Below are positions 11,995 through 62,106 of a DNA stretch of 64,000 bases, piece after piece (within the stretch, counting starts at the first letter, position 1; the number at the start of each line of letters is the position of its first letter). This stretch comes from Escherichia phage 215Ecol030PP: sequence record PP328843.1; one strand, 5' to 3'. A program made the translations under genes and the position numbers. The notes under the pieces were generated by a model. The model saw only the letters and a program-made list of their open reading frames with translations, had not been told where the DNA came from and made no database searches.

Positions 11995-12597
11995 TTATAG
12001 ATTAAATCCTTCAAAATCAAGAGTATAGATAGTGTATGTTGAACACTTTTTATACTCATATCTATCTGCAATTCTAAATACACTTCCAGCTGGTATCATT
12101 ACTTCTTGTTCATCTGAAACTAATTCCATATTACGATAACGATGACTATCCGGAAACTTAAAGTTTGGATTGTATTCTTTACAGCGTAGAGCTTTTATAG
12201 CATACTCCTGGAAATTGAATACCATAGGAGCTTTGAATTCAAAAATAACTTGTGTGTTATACTCTAAACCGGAAGCAAAATGTAGAGCTATATTTTTATC
12301 ATATGAAGCTGATACGACTTTATCAAATGTAATAATATCAATTCCTTGATTTAACACCTGCTTAGTCTCAGCTGGAACACCTCTCCAAAGAGGTTTATCG
12401 TTTGGTTCCAAACGAGATTTGATTATTTCATTTAACCAAGTATGGTCATCTGGTTTATTAGTAATACAATGAATTAAAAGTTCAATTTCAGATAAATTAA
12501 ACCCTTCAGAAAGTAATTCTTCACGAATAGAAGCACGCACCGATGCATCCATTGATTTTATTTTAAAATCTTTTAGTTGCATTACTGAGTATTTCAT
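11995..12597 (-). CDS. modA: ADP-ribosyltransferase ModA, 200 aa
   Basis: Size and position match T4 ModA; paralogous to the adjacent upstream gene. Confidence 0.7.
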   Translation of the reverse strand: MKYSVMQLKDFKIKSMDASVRASIREELLSEGFNLSEIELLIHCITNKPDDHTWLNEIIKSRLEPNDKPLWRGVPAETKQVLNQGIDIITFDKVVSASYDKNIALHFASGLEYNTQVIFEFKAPMVFNFQEYAIKALRCKEYNPNFKFPDSHRYRNMELVSDEQEVMIPAGSVFRIADRYEYKKCSTYTIYTLDFEGFNL

Positions 12598-13217
12598 TCA
12601 ACTACCTCAATATCATAAACTTTAAATGTTCCAAATGAATCGTGTAATTTTTCTTTTGAAATAGAAGTTATTCTATACTTTCCAATTGGAATCATCCATT
12701 CTTGTTCACGCACAATCATCATTAAGTTATCAGTACGCTCTGAATCTAGCCCATCAGTATCTTCATACGTGTACTTAAACTCAGTATTAGGAGAAGAAAG
12801 TATAATATCGCTGATATGGTCAGAATAATTAAAAGCTTTATCAGTTTTTAAGCGAAATATTATTTCAGTGAAATACTCAACATAAGAAAAACCACATGCT
12901 GTGTGCAAACTAGTAGTAAATGAATCTACTCTGTTCGTTGAAAACACTTCTCCGACTTGTAAATCTTTAATGAGTTCTTTTGTCGATTTTGATATACCAC
13001 GATATAGCTGATAAGGCGATTTAGTTAAATGCTTTTTAACGATTTTATTCAACTGCCGATGAAGAGCTTCATTCTTTTTGGCTTCCATACACTGCCAAAG
13101 AACTGACTGTTCAAAGTCAGTAAATTTTTCACAGACTTTTTTATACATATCATATTGAAAATCAACGCTTTCAGCTTTTATAGATAACTGTTCAACATCT
13201 GTAAGATTAATAATCAT
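12594..13217 (-). CDS. modB: ADP-ribosyltransferase ModB, about 207 aa
   Basis: Paralog of ModA; probable ATG at 13215-13217 with GGAGG SD (track start 13229). Confidence 0.7.
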   Translation of the reverse strand: MIINLTDVEQLSIKAESVDFQYDMYKKVCEKFTDFEQSVLWQCMEAKKNEALHRQLNKIVKKHLTKSPYQLYRGISKSTKELIKDLQVGEVFSTNRVDSFTTSLHTACGFSYVEYFTEIIFRLKTDKAFNYSDHISDIILSSPNTEFKYTYEDTDGLDSERTDNLMMIVREQEWMIPIGKYRITSISKEKLHDSFGTFKVYDIEVVE

Positions 13218-13284
13218 GATAGCCTCCATATACTTCAGAAGCTATCATATCATCGTTAGAAAGGAAAGTAAACAACTTTTTGAA

Positions 13285-13467
13285 TTATTTTGCCCAGGGA
13301 GCCCAAGGCGGAGGGTCAAGATGGTATGAAGCTAGTTCTTCTAGAAGAGCATCTGGGGCTTCAATTCCATAATTCTGTAATACTATACGGTACTCTTTCT
13401 TATAATCACTAGAATCATTCTGGTTATTCGTAGAATGATTATCTTCTAACATCTCAAATAAATCCAT
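13285..13467 (-). CDS. hypothetical protein, 60 aa
   Basis: ORF in gene train. Confidence 0.5.
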   Translation of the reverse strand: MDLFEMLEDNHSTNNQNDSSDYKKEYRIVLQNYGIEAPDALLEELASYHLDPPPWAPWAK

Positions 13468-13475
13468 ATTAATTC

Positions 13476-13946
13476 CTAGCGATAAAAACCAAATTGACGA
13501 TTAGCTTCAATAATCTTTCTTTCTTCTTCGGACATTCTCCAGCGTAGTCCAACATCAAAATGGGCCCAGACCATCTTAACAAATGCATTTATGTCTTTAA
13601 TATCTTCAATGATGAATGTTTTACTTTTAAAAGGCTGACTCGCTAATTTAACTTTATCATCTTCAAACAGGTCAAAAAGACCATATTCATGAGCTCTTTT
13701 ATAGCCTTTAATAGTTAAAGCTTCAGAAGAAGAAAACGGTGAATCAGTATTCTGCAAAATATCTTCAGTATGCTTTATAATTAGAATAATATTTTCTGGA
13801 TATTTTCTTTCTTTTATATCTTTAATTAAAAAATCCGGATTTTCTGCTAAAGGAATAATTAATGAGCATTTTTTATCAAGTGTATTTACTGATTTACCTT
13901 CTTTAGACATGAATTCTACTGAATAATGTTTTGCTACTTCAATCAT
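13476..13946 (-). CDS. hypothetical protein, 156 aa
   Basis: ATG at 13944-13946. Confidence 0.55.
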
Positions 13947-14103
13947 GTGATTTCCTTTTGCCTACTAATGGACCATCGGGAATTTTGTTTTCCTGGATAT
14001 ATTTCTCATTTTCTTCCATCATTTTACTGCCAATTTTAAGAAGCAAATCCAGTGCTTCATTTGCTTTTGCTTTAGCCTCTTCTAACGTTATATCTTTGTT
14101 CAT
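13939..14103 (-). CDS. small hypothetical protein, 54 aa (not in ORF track)
   Basis: Own translation [54 protein letters not shown]; ATGA stop/start overlap with upstream gene. Confidence 0.45.
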
Positions 14104-14303
14104 GATTTATCACCATAGATGTCTCTCATCAATTTAAGCGCTGAGCGTTCTAATTTCTTTTCTTTCTCAGCACTAATCATTGATTTCATCCATTCTTCCG
14201 ATTCGTTCTGCATTTCTTTATTTGCTTGTTCAACCCAACCATCGTCAATATACATTGAGTTTGGTCTATTGAACCATTCAAGAATCTTCTTGGGAGCTTT
14301 CAT
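14100..14303 (-). CDS. hypothetical protein, 67 aa
   Basis: ORF in gene train. Confidence 0.5.
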
Positions 14304-14775
14304 TTATTTTACCTAAAACAATAGTAGGAGCATCGTCAAATTTATGAATTTTTAGTAAATTTGGATTTAACTTATTCCATAAAGAGGTAATAAAATATGA
14401 TAGCGCACTTTCGTCCGTAATTATAAATTTATTTCCTTTATCTATTTTCCAATCATATATTGAATCATATGAATAGAAGGATAACGGTTTATTATTATAA
14501 TATGCTTCACTAACATCAATATAGTTAGATTTAGTAAATGCTTGAATTGCCATAAATGGAGAATTTTGTACAGTTTCAATAATTCCGATCTTTTTAAGTT
14601 TTATTTCAACATCTTCTGGAATTGGCATTGAAATAAAATCTTCTACTAGATACATGTTATTGTCATATCTTTTATCAATCATTACTGCTACGGTAATTGG
14701 AACATCCTTGACAAACGCCATACTAATACTATTGATAAACATTTCAAACAAAATTGCTTCCATAATTTTCCTCAA
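14278..14775 (-). CDS. hypothetical protein, 165 aa
   Basis: ORF in gene train. Confidence 0.55.
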
Positions 14776-15113
14776 TCACAAGATGTAGATGAACAACTAG
14801 AATCACAAGAACTTCCACATGAATCACCTGCCCATACGTGAACAGGAACATTTGTATCATATGAATCAGAACTAGACTGTGTTTTCTGTGCATTAGATGA
14901 TGTAGTAGGTGTTGACCAGCGCCAAGGATTTTTATAATATTCTTGGGCTTCTTCATAAGTCATAGTAACTGCTTCTACTGTTCCATCTCCCATATAAACA
15001 TATTCAACTACAGTTAAAGGAAGGTAGTCATTTGAAATAGGAACTACACCTTCTCCGGGAGTTGTAGAGAAAAAATCCGTAAAGAAACTTTTAAACCAAT
15101 TAAAGATAAACAT
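14772..15113 (-). CDS. hypothetical protein with Cys/Ser-rich C-terminus, 113 aa
   Basis: C-terminal [15 protein letters not shown]. Confidence 0.5.
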
Positions 15114-15319
15114 TACAAAAAGCCTCTTTTGAATTCGACTTGCTTCTCACCATAATCATATCGAATTTCTGCATTAAATTCGACAGAACCATCTGCGTAC
15201 ATCATAAATGAATGCACAACAACTTCTGTAGACCATGGTTGTAGTTCATATTTCTTCATTACATGCCGTGAAATGATAATATCTAAATCTTCATTCGGTT
15301 TAATCCAACGATTTAACAT
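15113..15319 (-). CDS. hypothetical protein, 68 aa
   Basis: Early promoter upstream at about 15340-15378. Confidence 0.5.
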   Translation of the reverse strand: MLNRWIKPNEDLDIIISRHVMKKYELQPWSTEVVVHSFMMYADGSVEFNAEIRYDYGEKQVEFKRGFL

Positions 15320-15380
15320 AGCGCTCTCCTCTATAAGATAATTCTATTATACCATACTCATTTTGGAAAGTAAACTGCAA

Positions 15381-15409
15381 AAACGAAAAAAGGACTCCCG
15401 AAGGAGTCC
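15381..15409 (-). terminator. intrinsic terminator downstream of soc: GGACUCC-UUCG-GGAGUCC plus U6
   Basis: Plus strand aaaaaa ggactcccgaaggagtcc at 15386-15409, 9 nt after the soc stop codon. Confidence 0.6.
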
Positions 15410-15417
15410 TTGAATTA

Positions 15418-15663
15418 TTAACCACCAGTTACTTTCCACAAATCTTCGTTTGCAGCAATCCATTCAGTACGCTGATTTTCTTCATATACAGTAGTATATG
15501 CTGCTTTTTCTGAAGGGAACGTCTGGTAATGAGCACCAGAAATTTTGTGAACGTCAGAATAAAGAGGGAAAGCTACTGAAATTTCCTTTCCTTCAATTTT
15601 CTTATTTCCATCTAATTTCTGCTCAAATGTTTTGATATTAACATAACCGCGAGTACTAGCCAT
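15418..15663 (-). CDS. soc: small outer capsid protein Soc, 81 aa
   Basis: Sequence MASTRGYVNIKTFEQKLDG... recognised as T4 Soc; ATG at 15661-15663. Confidence 0.9.
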   Translation of the reverse strand: MASTRGYVNIKTFEQKLDGNKKIEGKEISVAFPLYSDVHKISGAHYQTFPSEKAAYTTVYEENQRTEWIAANEDLWKVTGG

Positions 15664-15696
15664 GTAATTCTCCTTTTATTTAAATTACATGATTAT

Positions 15697-16371
15697 TTAT
15701 ACATCTTCTTTTCTGAATAAGTAAATTAAATTCTTAAGAGCTGAACTTGTTACATCATATTTTCCTTTAAGCGCCTTTACAACCGGGCCTGTTGCTGGTT
15801 TACCTAAAGAAACCCATAACTCGTGTATTTCGCTTTTAAGTGGTTCATGCCAATGCGGTGCTTTTCTTTGCGCCCTTGAAGTTCCTTCTGAAATCTTTTT
15901 ATTTCCGCCATTCGAATAAAACTTTTTCATTACTTCAGATTGCCGAGCTTTTCGTTCTGCTCTATTTTGGGCTATACGTTGTGAATTCTTCATCCGAGTT
16001 TTTGTTTCAGGGTTGTTTAATCTAAGTTTATGTTCTAATCGTTGTTGCTCAGTCCATTTTCTTCCTTCTCCACCCTGACCACCAGGAGAAATATTAATGC
16101 AAGTATCTGGGTGTTTACGTTTTAATGCAGATATTAGCTCGCGTTCAACTTCATATGATTTTTCTCTAGAACCATGGCATTTTGACCAACGTATTTTATA
16201 ATTAAAACCATACTTACGATATATGTTCCATAGTATTTTGCCTGAACCCGGATATTTATCATCATATGGATTTGCAATAAATGATTCATGTTTCCCAGCG
16301 TACCAAAAGACGCCTTTCGGCGTCCTAACTTTTACTATATATGTTCTATAAAATTTTTGTTTAATACCCAT
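15697..16371 (-). CDS. segF: GIY-YIG homing endonuclease SegF-like, 224 aa
   Basis: GIY-YIG core (YIVKV ... WYAGKH); free-standing next to gene 56; ATG at 16369-16371 (track start is an upstream TTG). Confidence 0.75.
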   Translation of the reverse strand: MGIKQKFYRTYIVKVRTPKGVFWYAGKHESFIANPYDDKYPGSGKILWNIYRKYGFNYKIRWSKCHGSREKSYEVERELISALKRKHPDTCINISPGGQGGEGRKWTEQQRLEHKLRLNNPETKTRMKNSQRIAQNRAERKARQSEVMKKFYSNGGNKKISEGTSRAQRKAPHWHEPLKSEIHELWVSLGKPATGPVVKALKGKYDVTSSALKNLIYLFRKEDV

Positions 16372-16879
16372 TATCTTGACGTTCAAAATTATGTTTATTT
16401 TTCAAATAATAAAGTTTAAAGATTTCTTCCGCATTCATTCCAAGGCCAGCAAACATATTTAATACGAAATGAAATATATCCACAAGCTCAAATTTAATTT
16501 CGAGCTGATCTTCTGGGGACATTTCATCAATGCGTTTTTCTTGCGCTTCAATATAACGTGCTTTCCATTTTTTCCAAACTGCCGATGCATCTTTTTCACC
16601 ACGTGACATTTCACCAAGAGAAGTCAGAAGTTCGCGGAATTCATCGTCAATGCAGTCTTTTTGTTCACGCATCCAAGAAACAACATCACCTGCAGTAGCC
16701 AAATCATCAGGATGACGGTTATATTCAGGTTTATCTTTAGCTAAACGAATCTGCAGAGATTTCTGCATGTCAAGCATTACCTGCAGCGGGTCTTTTTCAT
16801 CACCGAGAATATCCCAATATTCATTTTGAGCTTTATCAGCGCCTTCGATCAGTTGACTACATTCGTTAAAGTAAGCCAT
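16361..16879 (-). CDS. 56: dCTP pyrophosphatase gp56 (MazG-like dCTPase/dUTPase), about 172 aa
   Basis: MazG-type NTP pyrophosphatase; ATG at 16877-16879 with AAGGA SD (track start is an upstream TTG). Confidence 0.85.
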   Translation of the reverse strand: MAYFNECSQLIEGADKAQNEYWDILGDEKDPLQVMLDMQKSLQIRLAKDKPEYNRHPDDLATAGDVVSWMREQKDCIDDEFRELLTSLGEMSRGEKDASAVWKKWKARYIEAQEKRIDEMSPEDQLEIKFELVDIFHFVLNMFAGLGMNAEEIFKLYYLKNKHNFERQDNGY

Positions 16880-16939
16880 TATTTTTCCTTTCAATTCATC
16901 AATAAGTTAAATAATTATATCATTTGAGTATGTAAGCAA

Positions 16940-17728
<789 letters not shown>

Positions 17729-17829
17729 TCATTTATTGCAGCAAAAATGAATTATATAATTCTTCATCATATGTATTTGATAGTAATACTAACACGTTTT
17801 GCGATAAATATTAATTTAAAGGAGGACAT

Positions 17830-18030
17830 ATGGTACAAAAATTAATGGCACTTGTTGATGCCATAAAAGGTAATAAGAAACGTATAGCTTTTACTATTTC
17901 TGCTATGATAGGAATTTTACTCTGGAACTTTATTTTATCACCTGTTGCAATTGCACATGGTATTAATATTCCAATAGTTACTCTTGATACATTCGTAGAT
18001 TTAGCATTTGCTTTAGTTGGGTTAATTTAA
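17830..18030 (+). CDS. plus-strand small membrane protein (two predicted TM helices), 66 aa
   Basis: Only plus-strand ORF outside minus-strand coding sequence; strong SD AAAGGAGGA at 17818-17826 then ATG at 17830; hydrophobic segments. Confidence 0.4.
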   Translation: MVQKLMALVDAIKGNKKRIAFTISAMIGILLWNFILSPVAIAHGINIPIVTLDTFVDLAFALVGLI

Positions 18031-19055
18031 ATCTTAGCATATTTAGATAACCGCATTTTAGCCATCAACCCCTGGGCAATATTATTTTTCATATATTCCA
18101 TAATTTGTTCAGGGGTTGCACCTTCCTTTCTAATCATATCATTGACGTCTTTTGATTTCCAGGGAGATTTATCCCAAAACATAACCCTTTCTCCTGCATC
18201 AACTAATTTAGTCATTCGTTTAATAGTGTCAGGGTGACGAGGTTCATTATCTAAAACCCACACTCGTCTATCTTTAAATGGAACAACTTCTAGGTCTAAT
18301 TGACCACCCGTAATAGCTATACCATTTTCAATAAAAAGCGAATCTATAGGTCCTTCTAGAACATATACATCGCCATCTTTAACTCGTTCAACTCCATAGA
18401 TTTTTGTTGCCTCAGGATAAGCTTTAATGGTGATATATTTTTGAGGAGCATCTTTCTTTAATGCGCGTCCTTGAAAAGACTCAGCCTTTCCGTCAGCATT
18501 ATAAATTGGAATAACAAGACGAGGCTCAGAAATTTCCTTTTTGTATGTTCCCGGTGCGATGCTATTAACTAATTTAGGCCATTCGGTTGTAAACCAAAGA
18601 TATTTCCATTTATCCTTTGGAATACAACGAGCTTTTACATATTTTATAATTGGATGGTCTTCCGCCAGTTTATCTAATCTAACACATGACGGAAGAGATT
18701 TAATTATTTTCTTCTCAGGTTGTTTAGGAAGTTCTTTAGGTTTTTCTACTGGACGACTTTTACCTTTTTCTTTTCTTATTTCAAAGATATACTCACGATA
18801 TAAATCAGGTTCAAACTCCTTTAAATATATTCCGATTGGTACGTGATAGTTACAGTTATAACAATGAATATTTCCTTCATTATTATCACCATAATACCAT
18901 CCACGAGCTTTATTCTGATCGGTTTTTGAATCTCCACAAACGGGGCATCTAAACCGCAATTTAAAAGTTGAACTATTATTTACTTGTGTGAATTTAGGTA
19001 AATGAGCCAATGCACGATACGCAAACTCATTATCAATCCAAGGTATTGATGACAT
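18027..19055 (-). CDS. 61: DNA primase gp61, 342 aa
   Basis: N-terminal zinc ribbon CPVCGDSK...CYNCNYH and Toprim domain; ATG at 19053-19055. Confidence 0.92.
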   Translation of the reverse strand: MSSIPWIDNEFAYRALAHLPKFTQVNNSSTFKLRFRCPVCGDSKTDQNKARGWYYGDNNEGNIHCYNCNYHVPIGIYLKEFEPDLYREYIFEIRKEKGKSRPVEKPKELPKQPEKKIIKSLPSCVRLDKLAEDHPIIKYVKARCIPKDKWKYLWFTTEWPKLVNSIAPGTYKKEISEPRLVIPIYNADGKAESFQGRALKKDAPQKYITIKAYPEATKIYGVERVKDGDVYVLEGPIDSLFIENGIAITGGQLDLEVVPFKDRRVWVLDNEPRHPDTIKRMTKLVDAGERVMFWDKSPWKSKDVNDMIRKEGATPEQIMEYMKNNIAQGLMAKMRLSKYAKI

Positions 19056-19057
19056 TT

Positions 19058-19222
19058 TTACTCTTCTTTTTCTTTAGATTCCTCTTTTTTCTTTTTAGGA
19101 ATCTGTTCAGGACCTTTATTTACTACAGCACCTGATGTTGTTCCAGTAGAGATATTTTCAGGATTACCACCTGAATCTCCAGCAACCATATCTTCTTTAA
19201 TAAATTCTTTATATGTTTTCAT
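19058..19222 (-). CDS. small hypothetical protein (61.1 position), 54 aa (not in ORF track)
   Basis: Own translation MKTYKEFIKEDMVAGDSGGNPENISTGTTSGAVVNKGPEQIPKKKKEESKEKEE; fills the gap between two genes. Confidence 0.45.
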   Translation of the reverse strand: MKTYKEFIKEDMVAGDSGGNPENISTGTTSGAVVNKGPEQIPKKKKEESKEKEE

Positions 19223-19223
19223 A

Positions 19224-19868
19224 TTAACCTCTATTCATAAAAGCATTAAAAATTTGGTCATCAATAGAAACATTTACTTTAGACTGTTTTTCTGCTGGTA
19301 ATTCGTATCCACACACTACAATTTTTTCATCGATATCAAAATATACAGAAGCAATACGATTAATGTTATTTTCAGTTAAGTCTAAATCAACATCAACATC
19401 TTTTTGATCTACACTTAAAGGATAACTAATGCGGGTTATTTTATTATCTTTAACAAAGAGTCCGCCAACATACTCTGTACTACGTTTGAAGTTTACACGT
19501 TTCCGAATTGAAAGATATGATACATCTTTACCGTGAGCTCGGCTCATAGGACATAATGAATAGCTAGAATAAGAGATGTCAAATCCTACACCTTCAATAT
19601 GAGCCAACGCGTCATGATTAAACCAATTATAATCATATGCCAAATCCATTATATTGTAATATGTGAAAGGCACAGGATTAACATCATATGTTGTACCTTT
19701 AAAATCTGCCCAGGCAACGATTTCGTTATCTTTAACAATTACAAAAATTACACCAATATGATATCCGTTATTATTTTCATTCGGCGTTATATTATAACAT
19801 TGTGCATCAGGAAATTTACCGTATTTAAACGGTGGATTTTTGTGCATATAATAAATCATATTATTCAC
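19224..19868 (-). CDS. hypothetical protein (61.2 position), 214 aa
   Basis: ORF in gene train. Confidence 0.55.
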   Translation of the reverse strand: MNNMIYYMHKNPPFKYGKFPDAQCYNITPNENNNGYHIGVIFVIVKDNEIVAWADFKGTTYDVNPVPFTYYNIMDLAYDYNWFNHDALAHIEGVGFDISYSSYSLCPMSRAHGKDVSYLSIRKRVNFKRSTEYVGGLFVKDNKITRISYPLSVDQKDVDVDLDLTENNINRIASVYFDIDEKIVVCGYELPAEKQSKVNVSIDDQIFNAFMNRG

Positions 19869-20154
19869 CTGTGATTTCGGTTACGATATTTTTGTTATTA
19901 AAGTTTTTATCGCAATACAGAACATAATTATACTGCATTACACCACCAGACTTAAGCTGTTTTTGTACTTCAGCTTTCATTTCAGGACGATCGCGCTCAA
20001 CGATATTCATAATATCCGCTTCAATTTGAGTTTCAACTTCAGTCTGATCCGCAGTCATAGACCATTCACACAAATCTTTATCATAACCTGCCATAGCAGG
20101 CTGAGCAGCACAAGAAGCTAAAGCAAAAATTGTAGCAAAAATAAATTTTTTCAT
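19861..20154 (-). CDS. sp: Spackle periplasmic protein Sp, 97 aa
   Basis: Signal peptide MKKFIFATIFALASCAAQPAMA; size and position match T4 sp. Confidence 0.8.
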   Translation of the reverse strand: MKKFIFATIFALASCAAQPAMAGYDKDLCEWSMTADQTEVETQIEADIMNIVERDRPEMKAEVQKQLKSGGVMQYNYVLYCDKNFNNKNIVTEITGE

Positions 20155-20214
20155 GATAATCTCCTCAGTAGTTTATGTTTATATAGTATCTCAATTTCCA
20201 ACAAAAGTAAATAG

Positions 20215-20472: not shown

Positions 20473-20473
20473 A

Positions 20474-20656
20474 TTATCCTCGGCAATCTACTTCACATAC
20501 TTTCTTGTCATCAATGAAAGCTTTAACTAATGCTTTATTAACTTCAGCATATTGAGTAGTAGCCCATTGAACGTCATCTTTCATCATTGTGATTTCTTTA
20601 GTAAACATGCTTTCATTCTTAAACCACCCCATAAAAACTACCTTTACCAATTCCAT
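20474..20656 (-). CDS. dmd: Dmd, discriminator of mRNA degradation (antitoxin against RnlA/LsoA), 60 aa
   Basis: Sequence MELVKVVFMGWFKNESMFTKEITMMKDDVQWATTQYAEV... recognised as T4 Dmd; SD GAGGAG upstream. Confidence 0.85.
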   Translation of the reverse strand: MELVKVVFMGWFKNESMFTKEITMMKDDVQWATTQYAEVNKALVKAFIDDKKVCEVDCRG

Positions 20657-53596: not shown

Positions 53597-54583
53597 TTAT
53601 TTCAGAAGAGTAACCTCAGCAATTTCTTCCCAACCGTTTTTGTCGGTCATAATAAAGTCAGCAAGATAAAGTGCAGTACGCAGTGAAACATTGCGTAAAC
53701 GGTTAACATTGACTTTCATCCATGATAATGCTTTATAAGTTTCTTCATCAGAAAGACCGCGCTTTTGCATCATGTCGGTTGAAAGAATAACATCTTCAAC
53801 CCTGACCATAATTTCTTCATTAGTGTGAACACCCAAATCTAAATAAACTGAGCGGGACACTAATGCTTGTAAATGTGGAGCGAGTTTAGTACCACGGTCT
53901 AATTCGCGGTCAATATCAACGTTTGTGATAAAAACAATCGTTCCTTTAAATTCAAACTCACGCTCAATGCCTTTTTCTTCTAAGTAAGAAGATGCAGTGC
54001 TCCAGCAGACTTTACGGGTCTCTCCAGTGTCCAGAGCAGCTTTCAGAAGATTAAGAATGTCCATATCAGAGAAAACATCCACATCATCAATCAAAAGGAC
54101 AGAATTCTCTTCACGATTATTCCAAAGCTGCTCATAAAGACCGATACCGGAGATTTTACCATTAATGCTTTTATACTCAATGTATCCAATATCATTTGCT
54201 TTATTCAAAGCTTTATCTAAAGAATACGTTTTACCAATACCTGCCGCACCAGAGATAATTAATGAACGAATGTTTCCGTTAATAATACCATTCGTCATCA
54301 TTCCCATAACATTAAATCTTTTATTAATGCGGGTTTTCATATCTTCATATGATTCTTTAACTTCTTCAACTTTTACACCATCATATGAAATGTCTGATTT
54401 GTAAACCCAAACACCGCGACGCTTACCGTCAATTTCAACAAAAACTTTACCATCTCCTTGTGCATCTACCGGAGCATTATCTGGGAACCATTCACCTAAG
54501 AGCTCAAAAGTTCCAGAGATTTCTTTACCGAAGTAGATACCCTTATTGATAGTTACAGTTTTCATTTTATTCTCCAATTTCAC
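53597..54583 (-). CDS. P-loop NTPase (AAA-like ATPase), 328 aa
   Basis: Walker A GAAGIGKT and Walker B LLIDDVD. Confidence 0.6.
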   Translation of the reverse strand: MKLENKMKTVTINKGIYFGKEISGTFELLGEWFPDNAPVDAQGDGKVFVEIDGKRRGVWVYKSDISYDGVKVEEVKESYEDMKTRINKRFNVMGMMTNGIINGNIRSLIISGAAGIGKTYSLDKALNKANDIGYIEYKSINGKISGIGLYEQLWNNREENSVLLIDDVDVFSDMDILNLLKAALDTGETRKVCWSTASSYLEEKGIEREFEFKGTIVFITNVDIDRELDRGTKLAPHLQALVSRSVYLDLGVHTNEEIMVRVEDVILSTDMMQKRGLSDEETYKALSWMKVNVNRLRNVSLRTALYLADFIMTDKNGWEEIAEVTLLK

Positions 54584-54634
54584 ATTTGTTTTGATAGGGT
54601 AATAGTATCACACTACTACCCTTCTGTAAACAAT

Positions 54635-54898
54635 TTATTTTAACGTTCGCCAAATTTTTACTGCTTCACGGCGAGATACTTCTACAGCTCCAAGTTCTAC
54701 AGCTTTTTGGCGTCGGCGAGCGTGTAAGTCATAATGTTTAATGCGTTTATCTTGAAACCAAGAACGTTTCATTCCTATTGCTTCTGCCATTTCATGAAGC
54801 TCTTCAATATCTCCATCAGTGAACATATGACAATTTTTAGTTGGATGACCGCGAAGTTTCCATCCATGATTCATTAAAACATCTACGTAAACTGTCAT
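54635..54898 (-). CDS. hypothetical protein, 87 aa
   Basis: ORF in gene train. Confidence 0.5.
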   Translation of the reverse strand: MTVYVDVLMNHGWKLRGHPTKNCHMFTDGDIEELHEMAEAIGMKRSWFQDKRIKHYDLHARRRQKAVELGAVEVSRREAVKIWRTLK

Positions 54899-55044
54899 TG
54901 ATTCTTCTCCAAATAAGTTTCGATAATTTTCTGGGCGAGATAAACCGCGTTATCTTCAGTTGCGTCTTCTAAGAAACTTTCAAAACACTCTGAAATTTCT
55001 TCTGTGTCAATCAACTTTTTTACTTCAATTGGTGTAATTTTCAT
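54895..55044 (-). CDS. small acidic protein, 49 aa (not in ORF track)
   Basis: Own translation MKITPIEVKKLIDTEEISECFESFLEDATEDNAVYLAQKIIETYLEKNQ; ATGA overlap with downstream gene; early promoter upstream at 55063-55101. Confidence 0.4.
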   Translation of the reverse strand: MKITPIEVKKLIDTEEISECFESFLEDATEDNAVYLAQKIIETYLEKNQ

Positions 55045-55168
55045 TTTGTTTTTCCGTTTAAGTGTTTGTTTTGATAGTTGTATAGTACCATAAAGCTTTA
55101 TGCTTGTAAACTGTTTTGTGAAAAATTTTTGAAATAAAAAAAGGGACCTCTAAGGCCCCTTTATGCTT

Positions 55169-55654
55169 TTATTCCATTTCTATTATATGCATGTTCTTTT
55201 TGCTATCAAAATATATGTTTTTAACTGTTAACTCCGAATTAATTGGCAATAAAAACTCTCTTTCATAATCTACCATACAAAGGTTATCATAAAGCTTGTT
55301 AAGCTTATCATCGTCAGTTTGGCCAGATTCTTCAACTGCGATTAAATTTTCTAAAATGTCAATCATAGCAGTCGAATAGTCAAAAACGTTTGCATTTTTT
55401 AACACTACTAAAACATTAGTCATATAGCGTTCTGCAGCAAACGTTTCAGCTATATGAGACTCACTGCTAAAGGAAGTTATTCTTTTAAATTTGATTCTCC
55501 TATTAACTTCAAACTTATAAGATAGTACTTCCTCTATTGTAAGTCCTCTAAAAAGCACGTCTTTAATCTCAAGTTTGTCTTTAATGTAATCATTAACACG
55601 CTTATGATTAAAATCATTAATTTTGTTGCCAAGGCATTGCATTAAAATATGCAT
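55169..55654 (-). CDS. hypothetical protein, 161 aa
   Basis: ORF in gene train. Confidence 0.5.
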   Translation of the reverse strand: MHILMQCLGNKINDFNHKRVNDYIKDKLEIKDVLFRGLTIEEVLSYKFEVNRRIKFKRITSFSSESHIAETFAAERYMTNVLVVLKNANVFDYSTAMIDILENLIAVEESGQTDDDKLNKLYDNLCMVDYEREFLLPINSELTVKNIYFDSKKNMHIIEME

Positions 55655-55750
55655 TGTATTCTCCTCAATTTTTAAAGAGCAATTAATTAACTACACGTAT
55701 ATTATAATATGCTTTGCGGCAGAAGTAAACAACTTTGTGACGTCATTTTA

Positions 55751-55775
55751 AACAAAAAAGGAGCCCGAAGGCTCC
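55751..55775 (-). terminator. intrinsic terminator GGAGCC-UUCG-GGCUCC plus U6
   Basis: Plus strand aaaaaaggagcccgaaggctcc ending at 55775, 3 nt after the stop of ORF 55779-56792. Confidence 0.6.
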
Positions 55776-55778
55776 CTA

Positions 55779-56792
55779 TCATTTATAATAACTTCGGTGG
55801 TTTTCAAGATAGACCTTCTCAAGGAAGTCATCCCAGAAACTCATGTCTACTGTTTTAGGCATACCGTTCTTAGAAGCTTCAGTAGATGCTGCTTCTACTT
55901 GATCGACCACATCTTCCAAAAACTCTTGAACTGTTTTAAATGGATGTTTACCCAACTTCACGTCGAGAATAAATGGAGCATCTTGAAGTGGATAGACTAA
56001 GTCACCAGTTTTGTAAATTTCCAATAGTTGGAGTCCACCACGGCAAGCATGACTCAGAGCTTTCCAGTCAATGCCTTCATTGGCTTCGGCCTTACGAGCA
56101 CGTTCACCGTATTCAGCATCTAATTTGTTCAGTGACTGCTTAAGCTCAATAAGAGAAAGCGTTGTCTGATATTTACGACCCAACACAGTGTAGAACATTT
56201 GTGGGCCTGTTTTCTCATGATTATGGAACACCCATTCACAGAATTCGTTTTCTGGAAGACGATGCTTAATATCTTCAACTTTAGTACGACGCTGCTTAAT
56301 GGAACCGTCTTCTTGGTAATCAACCCATTGCTCAGGGATTTGATTAACTACTTTCAATACATCGCGTAATGCAGCCAAACGAGAACCCTTGACACCGTAT
56401 TTAGAAGCTTGCTTGCGAACATATCCTAAATAGGATTTCATGTTAGTCGTATAAAAACGAGAACGGTTGTCTTGAATAAACTTCCACACATCAGGCAAAT
56501 CAGATTTAACCACTAGTTCAGGTGGAGTGTGAAGCATATCCAACGCTACAGTTTCACCATCTGCTGCTAATTTAAAGAAATATTTAAGACTGTATAGTTC
56601 ATGGTCAATATCATCTTTAGTGTTTTTAGATGATGTGTTGTTAGTGTTTTTACTCATGTGCTCTTTGACATTTCCGATAAGAATATCGCGAGCAGGAGGA
56701 ACAAAGATTTCTTTAAAATCTACATCAGATTCTGGGGTAGAAGTTCCATAAAGATGGCTACCAAAATAACTTTTCATTACTGTTTTCATCAT
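55779..56792 (-). CDS. predicted nucleotidyltransferase (Pol-beta-like superfamily), 337 aa
   Basis: N-terminal GSHLYGTSTPESDVDF matches the GS...D.D nucleotidyltransferase signature. Confidence 0.55.
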   Translation of the reverse strand: MMKTVMKSYFGSHLYGTSTPESDVDFKEIFVPPARDILIGNVKEHMSKNTNNTSSKNTKDDIDHELYSLKYFFKLAADGETVALDMLHTPPELVVKSDLPDVWKFIQDNRSRFYTTNMKSYLGYVRKQASKYGVKGSRLAALRDVLKVVNQIPEQWVDYQEDGSIKQRRTKVEDIKHRLPENEFCEWVFHNHEKTGPQMFYTVLGRKYQTTLSLIELKQSLNKLDAEYGERARKAEANEGIDWKALSHACRGGLQLLEIYKTGDLVYPLQDAPFILDVKLGKHPFKTVQEFLEDVVDQVEAASTEASKNGMPKTVDMSFWDDFLEKVYLENHRSYYK

Positions 56793-57250
56793 TCAGCCTT
56801 ATATTCAATAACAGGACATACTTTAGCTTTACGAGCTTTTAAAAATTCAACGATAATCGATTTCTTGGGTTGAATAGGAGGTAAACCTTTATACGCTCTA
56901 TCAATATTTTCTACGTGTAAAGCATAATCCTTCTTCCATTTATAATCTTTATATTTTTCACGCAAATGTGCAGGAATAACAAATGAACCGATAATAAGTA
57001 AAACAACCAAAAGCGCAAGTATAAATGCTGATGGAAGCAAAGTCCATAAACTACCGAAAATAAGCCAACGTTGTAGACTTTCTGCACAAATAATTGTTAG
57101 CCCTACGAGTATAGTACATCCGAAAAAAGAAACGAAAAATGTAGGAATGGCAATAGACCAAAAGTATGCGCACAGCGTCTTAGGTCGTTGCCATTCATCG
57201 TTAAACAATTTGAATAATTTATAGTGCCAAGAGTTTTCATTAATAATCAT
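56789..57250 (-). CDS. integral membrane protein, 153 aa
   Basis: Multiple hydrophobic helices. Confidence 0.55.
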   Translation of the reverse strand: MIINENSWHYKLFKLFNDEWQRPKTLCAYFWSIAIPTFFVSFFGCTILVGLTIICAESLQRWLIFGSLWTLLPSAFILALLVVLLIIGSFVIPAHLREKYKDYKWKKDYALHVENIDRAYKGLPPIQPKKSIIVEFLKARKAKVCPVIEYKAE

Positions 57251-57252
57251 AA

Positions 57253-57774
57253 TTATCCTTTCATTGAAGGTGTAACAGTTGTTAAATACTTAATCATAGC
57301 TTCAGCTTCTGATTTTGATAATGAAATTTCTTCATTGTTTTGACGAATAGAAATAAAATCCGGATGACGGTCACCACCAGCTTTTAAAACACACATATAA
57401 GTATCAGTTTCATCTTCAATATCTGAAATGATTGAAGCAGTTCCACATGAATGTGGTTTTTGATAAATCAATACAGCTTTTCTTCCACCGTTTGACTGTT
57501 CATAAACTTTTAACACATCAAACAAATCGCTTCTTTTATCAATAGCTAAGATGTTGTTTTCATCTTCAATATTAAATCCTTCGGATACTTCATAAAGTGT
57601 CACCCATAAATCACCAATATCAATAACAGCGTTCACTTTTCCATGACTTTCAAGAGTATGACAAATTTTCTTGATTTCGTCATAACTCATTTTAATAATA
57701 TCATCTCCTTGAATAAGGAAGATGTCATTTTTAAATTCAACACGAATTAAACCACTTCCACTTGAAATAAACAT
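57253..57774 (-). CDS. hypothetical protein, 173 aa; distant paralog of the next gene
   Basis: C-terminus EAEAMIKYLTTVTPSM resembles DEAIALKTYLDSVIPTM of ORF 57781-58338. Confidence 0.5.
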   Translation of the reverse strand: MFISSGSGLIRVEFKNDIFLIQGDDIIKMSYDEIKKICHTLESHGKVNAVIDIGDLWVTLYEVSEGFNIEDENNILAIDKRSDLFDVLKVYEQSNGGRKAVLIYQKPHSCGTASIISDIEDETDTYMCVLKAGGDRHPDFISIRQNNEEISLSKSEAEAMIKYLTTVTPSMKG

Positions 57775-57780
57775 ATTTCC

Positions 57781-58338
57781 TCACTTTGAAATCATAGTTG
57801 GAATGACAGAATCGAGATAAGTCTTTAGCGCAATAGCTTCGTCTTTGGTAAATGTGACAATATACGATCGAAAATCATCAATTTGACGAATAGTTAAGAC
57901 ATCACCATCTTCATAGCATTTTGATACGTTTAAAACAGTTTCATCATTCTGATTGCAAGCGTTAGTAATAATAGCATTGCAATTTTTGAGCCATTTTAAA
58001 CTATGTTTTCTTTCATTAGAATAATAAAAATATTTAATCTTATCTATAAAACTATCCCAATGGATAACTGATAAACACATTGACTCACTTTTAATATTAA
58101 ATCCTGGGCATGAAGAATAAAAATGAATTTTGTGCTCATCATTGATGCTTACTATTTTATCAGTATAAGGATATTCAATTTGGGTTAAATGAATGATTTC
58201 ACTAGGCGTAAAATATAGCATATCGTCTTCTTGTGTCAAACGATACATATTATTTACTTTTTCTATAGCTAATTCACCAAAAAGCGGACTAACTTCTAAT
58301 ACTAATCGTTTCATATTGATTCTCTTCGACTCACCCAC
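57781..58338 (-). CDS. hypothetical protein, 185 aa
   Basis: Early promoter with 12-bp perfect inverted repeat upstream at 58463-58500. Confidence 0.5.
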   Translation of the reverse strand: MGESKRINMKRLVLEVSPLFGELAIEKVNNMYRLTQEDDMLYFTPSEIIHLTQIEYPYTDKIVSINDEHKIHFYSSCPGFNIKSESMCLSVIHWDSFIDKIKYFYYSNERKHSLKWLKNCNAIITNACNQNDETVLNVSKCYEDGDVLTIRQIDDFRSYIVTFTKDEAIALKTYLDSVIPTMISK

Positions 58339-58505
58339 AATTACATACTCCTTTGAATAATATCAATAATGTTGTTCACCAGATTATAAGTAAACATTGG
58401 ATAATTATATTGAATCATCACATACACAACAAACAAAACTTTCATTCTCTTCTCCTTGGCAGTTGACAAGATTACTATATCATAATCTTGTCAACTTGTA
58501 AACCA

Positions 58506-58679
58506 TTAAATGACGTTTTCAATAAAATTCTGAAGCTTTGTGTGAGCATCAACCATGATTTTCATTTCTTCTTTGGCGAAAGCTGTACCTCTTTCCCGAG
58601 AAGAACACTCATAGTCAGAAACTGCATTAGCATATTCTTCAATTAGTTTCATTAAAAACATCTGCTTTTCAGTTTTCAT
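58506..58679 (-). CDS. small hypothetical protein, 57 aa (not in ORF track)
   Basis: Own translation MKTEKQMFLMKLIEEYANAVSDYECSSRERGTAFAKEEMKIMVDAHTKLQNFIENVI; SD AGGUGGA; ATGA overlap with upstream ORF. Confidence 0.4.
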   Translation of the reverse strand: MKTEKQMFLMKLIEEYANAVSDYECSSRERGTAFAKEEMKIMVDAHTKLQNFIENVI

Positions 58680-58863
58680 TGTTCCACCTAATCATTTCAA
58701 GATATTGAACTAACTTAGCTTTAGATTTATCCAAATCCTTTTTAGCTGCTTCTATACCATCGTATGAATATCCTTCACAATGCTCAACTGCTAATTGATA
58801 TGAATCTATTTCAATATCACGTGCTAATTTAATGATTTTTTCAAACTGTTCACGTGTTAGCAT
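58669..58863 (-). CDS. hypothetical protein, 64 aa
   Basis: ORF in gene train. Confidence 0.5.
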   Translation of the reverse strand: MLTREQFEKIIKLARDIEIDSYQLAVEHCEGYSYDGIEAAKKDLDKSKAKLVQYLEMIRWNNEN

Positions 58864-58865
58864 AA

Positions 58866-59105
58866 TTAAACTCTCGTATTATGATCGATAATTTCATCAA
58901 GAAACATATCTAACGCTTCTAAAGCATTATCAACTTTAGCTTCAAATTTTTCAATACCTTTATTTGCAATGCCTGCCGAAAACCAAGCAAAGTCACTAAG
59001 TTCCTCATCTGCTTTACGAATTGAAGCCACTAATTCCTTGATTTTATCCGCTTGTTCGATACTAATCATTATTCCACCACATATGAAAGAGAGAACATTG
59101 CACAC
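58866..59105 (-). CDS. hypothetical protein, 79 aa
   Basis: ORF in gene train. Confidence 0.5.
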
Positions 59106-59302
59106 GCCATATGAGTTGCAGCTTCATCACACATATCATAACGTTTCTTAAGAAGTTCTACAAGTTCTTCACTAGTAACTTCATCCATGTCGACGAAAAA
59201 ATCACCATTAATGATGACGTAGATATTTCCTTCTTGATTAAGTGCTTCAATTTTCATGATGTTCTCCTCTTTATCCGATAGTTGTATAGTACCACAGCTC
59301 AA
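59069..59302 (-). CDS. hypothetical protein, 77 aa (start uncertain)
   Basis: ORF in gene train. Confidence 0.45.
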
Positions 59303-59324
59303 ACGGAAAGTAAACCGGTAAAAT

Positions 59325-59348
59325 GAAAAAAGTCTCCCGAAGGAGACT
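59325..59348 (-). terminator. intrinsic terminator GUCUCC-UUCG-GGAGAC plus U6
   Basis: Plus strand aaaaaagtctcccgaaggagac at 59327-59348, 4 nt after the stop of ORF 59353-59739. Confidence 0.6.
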
Positions 59349-59352
59349 AATG

Positions 59353-59739
59353 TTATTCGAGGGAAAGAAGATACTTACTCTGGTAAAACATTCCAGTAAT
59401 ATCATCTATCGTGCTTTGGATGGCTGGAGGCATTTCTTTATAAATGCTGTTAGATTGGTCTAGTATGCGATCAATCATTTTAATTGTGTCGGTAGGAAGT
59501 TTACTAGCATCTGGAATTGAAGGTGTGTATTTTCTACCAGAATACCCCAAATATCGCTCACCAAATTTATCAATCAAATCTGGCAACTCGGAGAAAATAA
59601 AATCGTATGCTTTGTGTCTAGCATAATTTTTAGTTTCAAAATGTGCAGAATGAAAATAAGCTTGTGCAGCCATTAATAAACCTAAGTATTCATCTGCCTT
59701 TGAAGGTTTTCCACTTTGTGAAAAGTCGCTGAATTTCAT
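59353..59739 (-). CDS. hypothetical protein upstream of rI, 128 aa
   Basis: ORF in gene train. Confidence 0.55.
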
Positions 59740-60029
59740 TCAGTCTCCAATTTAATGTTCATAATTCTAGCGTATGATTGTGCCATCTCCGCGCCTCGTT
59801 CTATACATTCAAAATCAGAAGAGCACGGGTCATTTTTATAGGTCGTTCTCATAAAACTATAGAATTGTTCAGACGATTCTACGCTTTTATTTTCAAAAAG
59901 CATATAAACGTGCCTAATACCAGATTCCATAAATTTATCAAAATGAGGATCGACATTCGCTTCAATCGATGGAGATAAAACAAATGACAATCCTAGCATG
60001 GCAAATAGTGCCGTTGCTTTTAAGGCCAT
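59736..60029 (-). CDS. rI: RI lysis-inhibition regulator (secreted/periplasmic), 97 aa
   Basis: N-terminal signal-anchor MALKATALFAMLGLSFVLSPSIEA; size and position upstream of tk match T4 rI. Confidence 0.78.
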   Translation of the reverse strand: MALKATALFAMLGLSFVLSPSIEANVDPHFDKFMESGIRHVYMLFENKSVESSEQFYSFMRTTYKNDPCSSDFECIERGAEMAQSYARIMNIKLETE

Positions 60030-60041
60030 AAAGGCCTCCTA

Positions 60042-60254
60042 TCATTTTTGCCCTGTATTTACTTTATGCCGATGCACGGCCTTAACTTTATCAAGGTATT
60101 TTTCAAAATTTCGCAATCTAGTATAGTCTGCCGGAGATTGGTTGAGTGATACTTCTCGACGCAAAGCTGAAATGATATTTCCAACTTCCCTACGAATTTC
60201 ATCTAATTGAAGAACGGTAAGATTGCGAAGTTGCTTTTCAGTTAATTGTAGCAT
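60042..60254 (-). CDS. hypothetical protein, 70 aa
   Basis: ORF in gene train. Confidence 0.5.
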
Positions 60255-60296
60255 ATATACCCCTTTAGTTAGATAAACCTATTTATAACTTTTGCA

Positions 60297-60878
60297 CTAA
60301 CCGAGCTTTTTAGTTAATTCATTCCAATGTTTTCTACACAAAGAAACATAAATTTCATCACCAATACAGATTTGATTACCTTCTTTAACTGGTGTTCCAT
60401 CTTCCATTAATCGAGCTGTCATAATAGCTTTTTTACCACAATGACAAACTGCCTTTAGTTCAATAAGTTTATCTGCAATCGCTAAAAGTTCTTTAGAACC
60501 TTCAAACAATTTTCCAGCGAAATCAGTCCTTAATCCATAAGCCATAACAGGAACATTATATGTATCAACAATTCGACTTAATTGATGCACTTGTTCAGTT
60601 TTTAAAAACTGGGCTTCATCTACAAATACGCAATGAATATCTTTTTGTGCTTCAGCCCATTTATAGAACTCGAAAATATCCATATCATCTGTAATAATAT
60701 TTGCTTCCTGCCTAATTCCAATGCGAGAAACGACTTCACAGACAGAATCGCGAGTATCAATAGCAGGCTTAAGAACTAATACACTCATTCCGCGTTCTTT
60801 ATAATTATGTGCAGCAGTCAAAAGAGAAGCAGATTTTCCAGCATTCATTGCTGCATAAGTAAAAATTAAACTCGCCAT
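60297..60878 (-). CDS. tk: thymidine kinase, 193 aa
   Basis: P-loop AMNAGKS and C-terminal zinc-binding cysteines; ATG at 60876-60878. Confidence 0.93.
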   Translation of the reverse strand: MASLIFTYAAMNAGKSASLLTAAHNYKERGMSVLVLKPAIDTRDSVCEVVSRIGIRQEANIITDDMDIFEFYKWAEAQKDIHCVFVDEAQFLKTEQVHQLSRIVDTYNVPVMAYGLRTDFAGKLFEGSKELLAIADKLIELKAVCHCGKKAIMTARLMEDGTPVKEGNQICIGDEIYVSLCRKHWNELTKKLG

Positions 60879-60887
60879 ATCACCTTC

Positions 60888-61073
60888 TTAAAGCGTATTC
60901 ACATAAGCTATTAATTCGTTTTCTTTCTTATCAAACCGATCAGCAAATTCTTCTTGCTGTTCGGGAGATAGCGGGCCGTATTCATCATAAAAGGTGTTTG
61001 CTTCTGTATGCTCATCTAGAAGTTCATGGATAAGCTCAAACAATTTGTCTTTTTGTTCTTTGCTTAGGCTCAT
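60888..61073 (-). CDS. hypothetical acidic protein, 61 aa
   Basis: ORF in gene train. Confidence 0.5.
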   Translation of the reverse strand: MSLSKEQKDKLFELIHELLDEHTEANTFYDEYGPLSPEQQEEFADRFDKKENELIAYVNTL

Positions 61074-61239
61074 ATATTAATTTCCAGAAGTTTTAAAATA
61101 ATTCGCTTTTGCTTAAATATTTCCACAGTTAAATGATCAGTATCTTTTTGACCAATTCCAATGGCAAAACCTTTATTAACAGCGAGTTCAATTAAATTAT
61201 CAAGTTCACGTAACACTTCATATTGTAACTCAGAACTAT

Positions 61240-61467
61240 TCATTTCGGTTTACCTTCTTTAACGAAATCTGGATAAGGATAAAATCCCGAATAAAATCCT
61301 TCACCTTTATGATTGATGCATCCTTTATTAGAACAATAGCACCAATAATCGAAATCACAAGCCATTTCATCATTACATAAAGCAAAAACAACAGGCCATT
61401 TACACTTTTCACAATGGGCATTTTTAAGAATACTAGTTTGGCTCATAACCATGTAACCTTTAAGCAA
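61240..61467 (-). CDS. Cys-rich (probable zinc-binding) small protein, up to 75 aa
   Basis: CEKC...CNDEMAC...CYC...C pattern. Confidence 0.5.
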   Translation of the reverse strand: MLKGYMVMSQTSILKNAHCEKCKWPVVFALCNDEMACDFDYWCYCSNKGCINHKGEGFYSGFYPYPDFVKEGKPK

Positions 61468-61655
61468 TATTCTTCTACATGTTGTTTACGACCTTTCTTA
61501 TCAATAAAGGTATATTCAACGAATGTTCCAATGTAGTCTTTATCTACATCATGTGGACTATTAATTGGACATTTAGTACGGCAAATGCGTTCCCATTGAC
61601 GAATAATTTCCACTTTGTTTTTAGGATCAAACGGATGTGGGTAATGTACTTTCAT
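61443..61655 (-). CDS. hypothetical protein, 70 aa
   Basis: ORF in gene train. Confidence 0.5.
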   Translation of the reverse strand: MKVHYPHPFDPKNKVEIIRQWERICRTKCPINSPHDVDKDYIGTFVEYTFIDKKGRKQHVEEYCLKVTWL

Positions 61656-62106
61656 AATCCACCACTATTAAATCAATATCAGGAGTAAACATGTCGATTA
61701 ATTTAGAAACCTTATCCCAATCGCCGCCAGCAATACCACAACCTATGCGTGGAATGTAAATTACTGGTTTAAACAAAAGGGTTTCTGCCTGTAGATTTAA
61801 TTCTATCATGCAGTTTACTAAAGCACCATAATCAAGATTAGGACCTGGTTCGTATTGCGTATACAGGTTATAGCATATACCAAAACCATTAGGTTTATGT
61901 TTAAAAACAATAGACATATCGCCTAATTTATCACGAGAACCGTACTCAGTAGTGGTTTTATCTATTTCTAAAATTTTGGGATAGGCTCTTGCTAATTGAC
62001 CAGCTACACCTGAACCCATAGTATGAAAACAATTGCACCCGTGCGCAATAATATTACCTTGAAGAAATAGGGCGACAATATCGCCCTTGATATATTTTAC
62101 AATCAT
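61627..62106 (-). CDS. macro-domain-like protein (candidate ADP-ribose binding/hydrolase), 159 aa
   Basis: N-terminal AHGCNCFHTMGSGVAGQLARAYP and C-terminal PRIGCGIAGGDW resemble macro-domain glycine-rich loops; motif-level inference only. Confidence 0.45.
   Translation of the reverse strand: MIVKYIKGDIVALFLQGNIIAHGCNCFHTMGSGVAGQLARAYPKILEIDKTTTEYGSRDKLGDMSIVFKHKPNGFGICYNLYTQYEPGPNLDYGALVNCMIELNLQAETLLFKPVIYIPRIGCGIAGGDWDKVSKLIDMFTPDIDLIVVDYESTLPTSV

Follow-up and report, generated by a model that had tools for sequence, protein, structure and literature searches.

The genome of Escherichia phage 215Ecol030PP (sequence record PP328843.1) encodes two ADP-ribosyltransferases, ModA and ModB, and, within the same 64,000-nucleotide stretch of DNA (hereafter the window), a 159-amino-acid (159-aa) open reading frame (ORF) that resembles a macro domain, a fold expected to bind or remove ADP-ribose (ADPr). 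The combination raises the question of what the macro protein acts on. A first-pass annotation had read these genes as a writer and a possible eraser or reader, and had suggested that the phage regulates or reverses its own ADP-ribosylation. The window, a segment of a Tequatrovirus (T4-like) genome, runs colinear with about the initial 64 kb of the T4 map, and all three genes are present on its minus strand. We found that the 159-aa ORF (61627-62106) encodes a genuine macro domain and is the orthologue of T4 tk.4, now named adfM. We consider it likely that its product removes the ADPr attached to phage DNA by host DarT2, using a Gln-type active site similar to that of SCO6735.

The macro-domain identity of the 159-aa protein is supported by profile searches, by comparison with solved structures and by structure prediction. 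The Pfam family Macro (PF01661) matches residues 22-136 with an expectation value (E) of 6.2e-8 and 33.1 bits, against a gathering threshold of 22, and the alignment spans positions 2-117 of the 118 in the model. A search with the single sequence already matched the solved macrodomains BT1257, Poa1p, SCO6735, DarG and TARG1. A family profile built from 42 homologues and searched against the PDB with HMMER recovered BT1257 (E 1.8e-20; 76.7 bits), TARG1 (1.5e-17; 67.3 bits), SCO6735 (1.4e-16; 64.1 bits), Poa1p (2.6e-14; 56.8 bits) and DarG (7.7e-12). The AlphaFold2 model of the protein, computed from the family alignment with a database cluster representative in place of the T4 sequence, reached a predicted local distance difference test (pLDDT) score of 94 and a predicted template modelling (pTM) score of 0.89. 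Using Foldseek, we found its closest folds in the PDB to be TARG1 (E 2e-10, probability 1.00), Poa1p, BT1257, DarG and SCO6735; 188 PDB entries matched at E <= 0.001, and the top 50 were all macrodomains or designs on a macro scaffold. The protein is therefore a real macro domain, confirmed well beyond chance and consisting of this single domain. The ALC1-like class includes four of its closest relatives, namely SCO6735, BT1257, TARG1 and DarG (PMC9411070). Both the search against macro-domain profiles that the first-pass annotation had recommended and the structure search thus bear out the resemblance it had noticed.

Comparison with T4 places the gene precisely. T4 Tk.4 (NP_049723, 155 aa) is identical to the 159-aa protein at 89 of 155 positions (57%; E 1e-69), and both genes occupy the same slot, tk.3 - tk.4 - vs. 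All 17 residues that are invariant in the family are common to the two alleles. Sequence and synteny together make this ORF the orthologue of T4 tk.4. The domain assignment itself was already known and is not new, because the T4 RefSeq entry for tk.4 reads “phosphatase; contains A1pp phosphatase motif” and near-identical genes in GenBank carry labels such as “macro domain protein”, “Poa1p-like family protein”, “Appr-1-p processing protein” and “RNase III inhibitor”.

The 17 invariant columns of the 42-sequence alignment are G8, H22, G23, N25, C26, G31, G33, A35, D49, G62, N80, Y82, Q84, P119, G122, G124 and W130, and several of them outline the predicted active site. The two glycine-rich loops noted earlier are indeed present. 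The first, MGSGVAG (residues 30-36; 61999..62019, minus strand), includes the invariant G31, G33 and A35 and is equivalent to the GxG loop conserved among macro domains (PMC9503650); the second, PRIGCGIAGG (residues 119-128; 61723..61752, minus strand), includes the invariant G122 and G124. Residues H22 to N25 form an H-G-C-N motif (62032..62043, minus strand). N25 aligns with N23 of the AdfM protein of phage PhiKZ, in which an N23A substitution reduces activity (PMC13309987). In the single-sequence alignment H22 falls on H23 of Poa1p, the residue mutated to alanine in PDB entry 6lfs. The histidine of this HxCN motif also occurs in BT1257 and TARG1 and does not discriminate between these proteins and a Poa1p-like family.

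Another notable position is Q84 (61855..61857, minus strand), which is invariant. It takes the place of the catalytic lysine in TARG1 (K84) and DarG (K80); in SCO6735 the essential Gln85 is found there. In the family-profile alignments, Q84 is placed on TARG1 K84 and on a glutamine of BT1257, and A126, in the second glycine-rich loop, on TARG1 D125. Since Q84 and A126 replace K84 and D125, the Lys/Asp dyad of TARG1 is absent. SCO6735 likewise has no such dyad: Gln85 sits at the lysine position, its Q85A mutant is fully inactive, and the enzyme was the fastest of three tested on DNA bearing thymidine-linked ADPr (T-ADPr) (PMC9411070). Judged by these alignments, the active site of the 159-aa protein is of the Gln type found in SCO6735 and BT1257. 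The resemblance does not extend to the mobile loop, which in SCO6735 and BT1257 is longer by about 5 residues and bears a lysine. Directly after Q84, 6 residues of BT1257 have no counterpart in the phage family, whereas the family aligns with TARG1 there without a gap; it has the short, TARG1-type loop, with the sequence Q-Y-E-P-G-P-N-L-D-Y and no lysine. We did not use an equivalence between Q84 and the lysine of PhiKZ AdfM, as the hhalign region around Q84 is of low confidence and offset by two residues.

The missing dyad could be taken to mean that the protein is a catalytically dead ADPr reader or sponge. We regard this as hardly credible, given that SCO6735 is highly active through the equivalent glutamine and that Q84, N25 and H22 are invariant across the 42 homologues. 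Because residues important in characterised relatives have been kept, a hydrolase seems likelier than a passive binder. Of the earlier suggestion that the protein binds or removes ADPr, the eraser half thus appears sound; the substrate and the partner proposed for it do not, as set out below.

The similarity to Poa1p raises a different possibility, namely that the protein hydrolyses a small ADPr derivative, either as a Poa1p-like ADP-ribose-1''-phosphate phosphatase or an O-acetyl-ADP-ribose deacetylase, in line with the historical annotation, or as an enzyme that breaks down ADPr-based toxins or immune signals, the latter for instance of the Thoeris type. Iyer and Aravind have proposed the last of these roles for phage macro proteins in general (PMC9503650). 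Poa1p is among the best sequence and fold matches, H22 aligns with Poa1p H23, and the T4 RefSeq and PHROG 335 labels refer to a phosphatase or A1pp motif. This “phosphatase” name, however, is an annotation transferred from the motif, and the family profile scores BT1257, TARG1 and SCO6735 above Poa1p. The only genetic phenotype in the T4 family is specific to DarTG2, and no phenotype or assay backs a small-molecule role for this family. We therefore consider a small-molecule substrate unlikely. The CmdTAC paper and the Thoeris II preprint contain nothing on phage macrodomains.

The DarTG2 phenotype is a direct lead to function. When a T4 transposon library was screened by HIDEN-SEQ on a host carrying DarTG2, tk.4 was the single significant hit and a clean knockout was DarTG2-sensitive; the gene was renamed adfM, for anti-DarT factor macrodomain (2025 preprint 10.1101/2025.11.20.689424). 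The finding fills a gap, because T2 and T4 without adfA and adfN had remained resistant to DarTG2, pointing to a further factor (PMC11825919). DarT2 ADP-ribosylates thymidine in single-stranded DNA, and DarG, TARG1 and SCO6735 reverse the mark (PMC9411070). In vitro, gp104 of PhiKZ, also termed AdfM, strips DarT2 marks from DNA (PMC13309987). By analogy with these relatives, we hypothesized that the window allele removes DarT2 marks as well.

We propose that the genes of the run vs.1-vs-tk.4-tk.3, whose order is abutting or overlapping, are expressed together. The macro protein would act as a stand-alone ADP-ribosylglycohydrolase of the TARG1/DarG/SCO6735 (ALC1-like) class, binding the ADPr that host DarT2 of DarTG2 systems has placed on thymidine of single-stranded phage DNA. 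Hydrolysis of the bond between base and ribose would restore DNA that can be replicated. Catalysis is probably of the SCO6735 type, with Q84 standing in for the lysine of TARG1 and DarG, and with the invariant N25 and H22 in the ribose pocket. Such a protein could be viewed as an “orphan antitoxin”, for which contact with the toxin would be unnecessary.

Several observations weigh against this assignment. The window allele is just 57% identical to the T4 protein in which the phenotype was established, and 45% identical over residues 51-155. For T4 itself, a preprint is the source of the evidence, which is genetic in kind, and our literature search found no biochemical work on its Tk.4. The 159-aa protein lacks the long mobile loop with lysine that aids DNA binding in SCO6735, and it is acidic, with an isoelectric point (pI) of 5.25. 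Macrodomains are, moreover, often promiscuous, and ADP-ribose-1''-phosphate, O-acetyl-ADP-ribose, ADPr on Asp or Glu, and ADPr on uracil in RNA may also serve as substrates.

The transferases of the window can also be assigned. modA (11995-12597, minus strand) encodes a 200-aa arginine-specific R-S-EXE ADP-ribosyltransferase identical to T4 ModA at 198 of 200 positions (99%). modB (12594-13217, minus strand) encodes an ADP-ribosyltransferase and RNAylating enzyme of 207 aa, identical to T4 ModB at 197 of 207 positions (95%); this length is counted from the second ATG, the T4-type start, and the open frame itself reaches back to another ATG at 13229. As in T4, the pair lies between srd and modA.2. 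Both proteins match PHROG 832, labelled “RNA polymerase ADP-ribosylase”. Searches of Pfam and NCBIfam gave no match for either, so that PHROGs and direct comparison with T4 alone identified them. The catalytic residues, as listed for ModA in PMC8120803, are kept: R72, S109 and E163-Q-E165 in ModA, and R73 and E171-Q-E173 in ModB. The reading of modA and modB as ADP-ribosyltransferase genes is therefore well founded, and both are ordinary T4 arginine-specific enzymes acting on host proteins, functionally unrelated to the macro gene. The target of ModA is Arg265 of the RNA polymerase alpha subunit (PMC8120803).

Could the macro protein nevertheless remove or read the ADPr, or RNA-ADPr, that the phage's own ModA, ModB and Alt place on host proteins, and so make this modification reversible or timed? 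Writers and a macrodomain hydrolase do occur within one genome, the substrates of SCO6735 and TARG1 include some proteins (PMC9411070), and no assay testing Tk.4 against the products of Mod or Alt came up in our literature search. The chemistry of the marks argues otherwise. ModB products are arginine N-glycosides that resist hydroxylamine (NH2OH), which cleaves Asp/Glu esters, and they are removed by ARH1 (PMC10468400); a review assigns the removal of arginine-linked ADPr to DraG/ARH enzymes, and that of Asp/Glu esters and O-acetyl-ADPr to MacroD/TARG1-like macro proteins (PMC8120803). The marks of Mod and Alt are arginine N-glycosides, a linkage that does not match the class of the hydrolase. 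To our knowledge, no TARG1-like macrodomain removes arginine N-glycosides.

Gene arrangement and distribution point in the same direction. That the genes share one genome block or early region is trivially true; they are neither adjacent nor co-operonic, as 48,410 bases separate modB from the macro gene and the two belong to different gene clusters. On the T4 map, modA/modB and tk.4 are spaced about as widely. Using tblastn, we found Tk.4-like macro proteins in 2,773 phage records, including 184 from Pseudomonas, 137 from Vibrio, 93 from Acinetobacter and 86 from Aeromonas phages. ModA/ModB homologues occur in 922 records, almost all of them from enterobacterial T-even-like phages. At least about 1,850 phage records thus contain a Tk.4-like macro protein and no Mod homologue detectable at E <= 1e-5, a threshold that may miss very divergent ADP-ribosyltransferases, and the two families are not co-distributed. 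The tk.4 phenotype, in addition, arose specifically on a DarTG2 host. With no coupling between the genes, a mismatched linkage, an uncoupled distribution and a different genetic role for tk.4, the idea that ModA, ModB and the macro protein form a regulated or reversible system does not hold up, and we judge it very improbable.

A combined role, in which a Tk.4-type macro protein counters DarT2 and also trims marks made by the phage's own transferases (off-target Asp/Glu- or nucleic-acid-linked ADPr, or ModB RNAylation products), with the divergence between alleles reflecting a changed substrate range, appears similarly far-fetched. If it were true, the phage would gain temporal control over its own ADP-ribosylation programme. 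Removal of host DarT2 marks remains the role we favour, and the transferases and the hydrolase most likely face different targets, the former attacking host proteins on arginine and the latter repairing phage DNA attacked by a host toxin. The presence of transferases and a macrodomain in one phage should accordingly not be taken to indicate a reversible signalling circuit that is complete in itself. Annotation of the macro domain in this T-even slot goes back a long time and its anti-DarTG2 role as AdfM was recently assigned, so the assignment carries little weight as a discovery.

What is mildly new is the allele itself, which is mosaic relative to T4 Tk.4. The neighbouring genes are 93-99% identical to their T4 counterparts at the protein level (tk, 191/193; tk.3, 65/70; vs, 112/115). 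Within the macro protein, 42 of the first 50 residues (84%) are identical to T4 Tk.4, compared with 47 of 105 (45%) over residues 51-155. Sliding DNA identity to T4 changes in parallel, from 100% at the end of vs to 82-87% over codons 1-50 and 37-72% from about 61960 to 61650, before rising to 88-100% in tk.3. The divergent segment, comprising codons 51-159 (61630..61956, minus strand), was apparently replaced by recombination. In megablast searches, about 294 phage records, including PhiZZ23, slur02 and Sf22, contain the window allele over its full length at >=90% identity, whereas T4, T2 and T6 match only the first ~150 nucleotides of the gene. The 2-kb piece around the ORF is 98.5-99% identical to many T4-like phages of Escherichia, Shigella and Citrobacter. 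Since no invariant residue distinguishes the two alleles, the differences between them look peripheral.

The mosaic structure also bears on whether the protein is a broader nucleic-acid de-ADP-ribosylase, acting on RNA base marks such as uracil-linked ADPr (U-ADPr) or on the products of DarT-like toxins beyond the DarT2 tested, with the divergent allele directed at another range of targets. An allelic mosaic in a near-identical context would fit diversifying pressure, and macrodomains of the TARG1-like kind, bacterial ones among them, are efficient at reversing U-ADPr on RNA (PMC13036486). Nevertheless, the active-site residues are identical in both alleles, T-even accessory regions are commonly mosaic without any change in function, and no bacterial defence that ADP-ribosylates RNA uracil is documented in the literature we examined. 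We consider such a broadened target range improbable and retain DarT2-marked phage DNA as the likely substrate.

A second anti-DarT gene in the window shows a comparable divergence. The homologue of adfA (gene 61.2; 19227-19859, minus strand), an inhibitor of DarT toxins, is 70% identical to its T4 counterpart, while its neighbours are near-identical (sp 95%, 61.1 95%, dmd 100%). adfA is thus a second divergent anti-DarT cassette in the window. The divergence of adfM (57%) and adfA (70%) amid neighbours of 93-100% identity fits the view that counter-defence genes behave as exchangeable cassettes, and these two sharply divergent cassettes may be of interest to specialists. Besides adfA, a further anti-defence or candidate anti-defence gene in the window is the start of vs.4. 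The 3' part of this homologue runs off the window end (63792-63998, minus strand), and T4 has the same amino acid at each of the 69 aligned positions. We take vs.4 to be the anti-CBASS sponge Acb2; if so, this site lies ~1.7 kb upstream of the macro gene, beyond vs, vs.1, regB and vs.3.

The immediate surroundings of the macro gene show several additional features. It is flanked by tk.3 and vs, and its reading frame overlaps the start of tk.3 by 29 nucleotides (61627-61655, minus strand) through a C-terminal extension ending in LPTSV; in T4 the overlap is only 4 nucleotides. Upstream, vs.1 (62437-62982, minus strand; 181 aa) is 100% identical to T4, where RefSeq labels it hypothetical, and matches the Pfam SLT lytic transglycosylase domain (25.1 bits; cut-off 21.3). 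In the interval between tk and tk.3 (60888-61467, minus strand), the gene content is unlike that of T4. It comprises a tk.2-like ORF with 54% identity to tk.2 (60888-61073), a 57-aa ORF matching PHROG 3452 (61070-61243) and a 75-aa Cys-rich ORF matching PHROG 2306 (61240-61467), all on the minus strand; the latter two have no counterpart in the T4 tk.1-tk.2 interval. Scans of positions 60200-64000 were uninformative on transcription units, yielding 14 promoter-like sites versus 14.3 in shuffled sequence and 5 terminator-like sites versus 2.3 ± 1.8. The terminator scan, barely above the shuffled level overall, flagged on both strands a GC-rich palindrome, AGGGCGA-CAATA-TCGCCCT (62069-62087), within the first 40 nucleotides of the macro coding sequence.

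We compared the 159-aa protein with characterised systems. T4 Tk.4 is the nearest, with the same slot, a single macro domain, a similar length (159 versus 155 aa) and the 17 invariant residues, H22, N25 and Q84 among them; the overall identity of 57% and the absence of the window allele from T4, T2 and T6 set the two apart. SCO6735 (PDB: 5E3B) and BT1257 (PDB: 2FG1/2AFC) are, like the phage protein, stand-alone, with a glutamine at the catalytic lysine position and no equivalent of Asp125. Among PDB sequences, BT1257 matches the phage family best, and the score of SCO6735 is not far below. SCO6735 can take thymidine-linked ADPr off DNA, and it rescues cells from DarT (PMC9411070). Its surface is electropositive, in contrast to the acidic phage protein, and the mobile loop of SCO6735 and BT1257, ~5-6 residues longer, bears a lysine. 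Both are bacterial housekeeping or repair proteins, whereas the phage protein would serve in counter-defence.

Human TARG1/OARD1 (PDB: 4J5R, 4J5S) is the top structural match (Foldseek E 2e-10; TM-score 0.72-0.82) and shares the short mobile loop. The two proteins are only ~20% identical, and the K84/D125 dyad of TARG1 is replaced by Q84/A126 in the phage protein. TARG1 reverses T-ADPr on DNA (PMC9411070) and U-ADPr on RNA (PMC13036486). DarG (PDB: 5M31, 5M3E, 5M3I) shares the macro fold and its class, with Foldseek E values of 3.5e-8 to 1e-7, and the reaction predicted for the phage protein, removal of ADPr from thymidine in single-stranded DNA, is the same. DarG, however, has the catalytic Lys80 and a C-terminal DarT-binding domain, whereas the phage protein has a glutamine, lacks that domain and is encoded next to vs and tk.3, with no adjacent darT. 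An identification as DarG was rejected, since the NCBIfam model NF048014 scored 27.8 bits against a cut-off of 250 and aligned only over positions 2-142 of 338, its macro part. The single bacterial homologue inspected, from Pelagimonas (P0090), is encoded by a gene that stands alone and is not next to a DarT gene; one such case is too little for a claim about origin.

The DarT-DarG, DraT-DraG and SirTM-Macro pairs resemble the window in that one genome codes for both a transferase and an ADP-ribosylhydrolase. In these pairs the genes are adjacent and the hydrolase is matched to the linkage, whereas the window genes are 48.4 kb apart and an arginine N-glycoside calls for the ARH/DraG class. Finally, gp104 of PhiKZ, a chimallivirus AdfM, is likewise a phage-encoded stand-alone macrodomain that counters DarTG2. 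Its kinship with the 159-aa protein is only remote (BLASTP E 0.001 over 33 residues; hhalign probability 96%), and it differs in being imported into the phage nucleus and in carrying a Lys-containing “PTK” motif typical of DarG. Given this remote relation and the Gln-type versus Lys-containing, DarG-like motif, the T4-type and PhiKZ AdfM proteins look like independent recruitments. The T-even AdfM family is of the Gln type, like SCO6735, and the PhiKZ AdfM apparently of the Lys type, like DarG, so that two macro subclasses seem to have been recruited for the same job.

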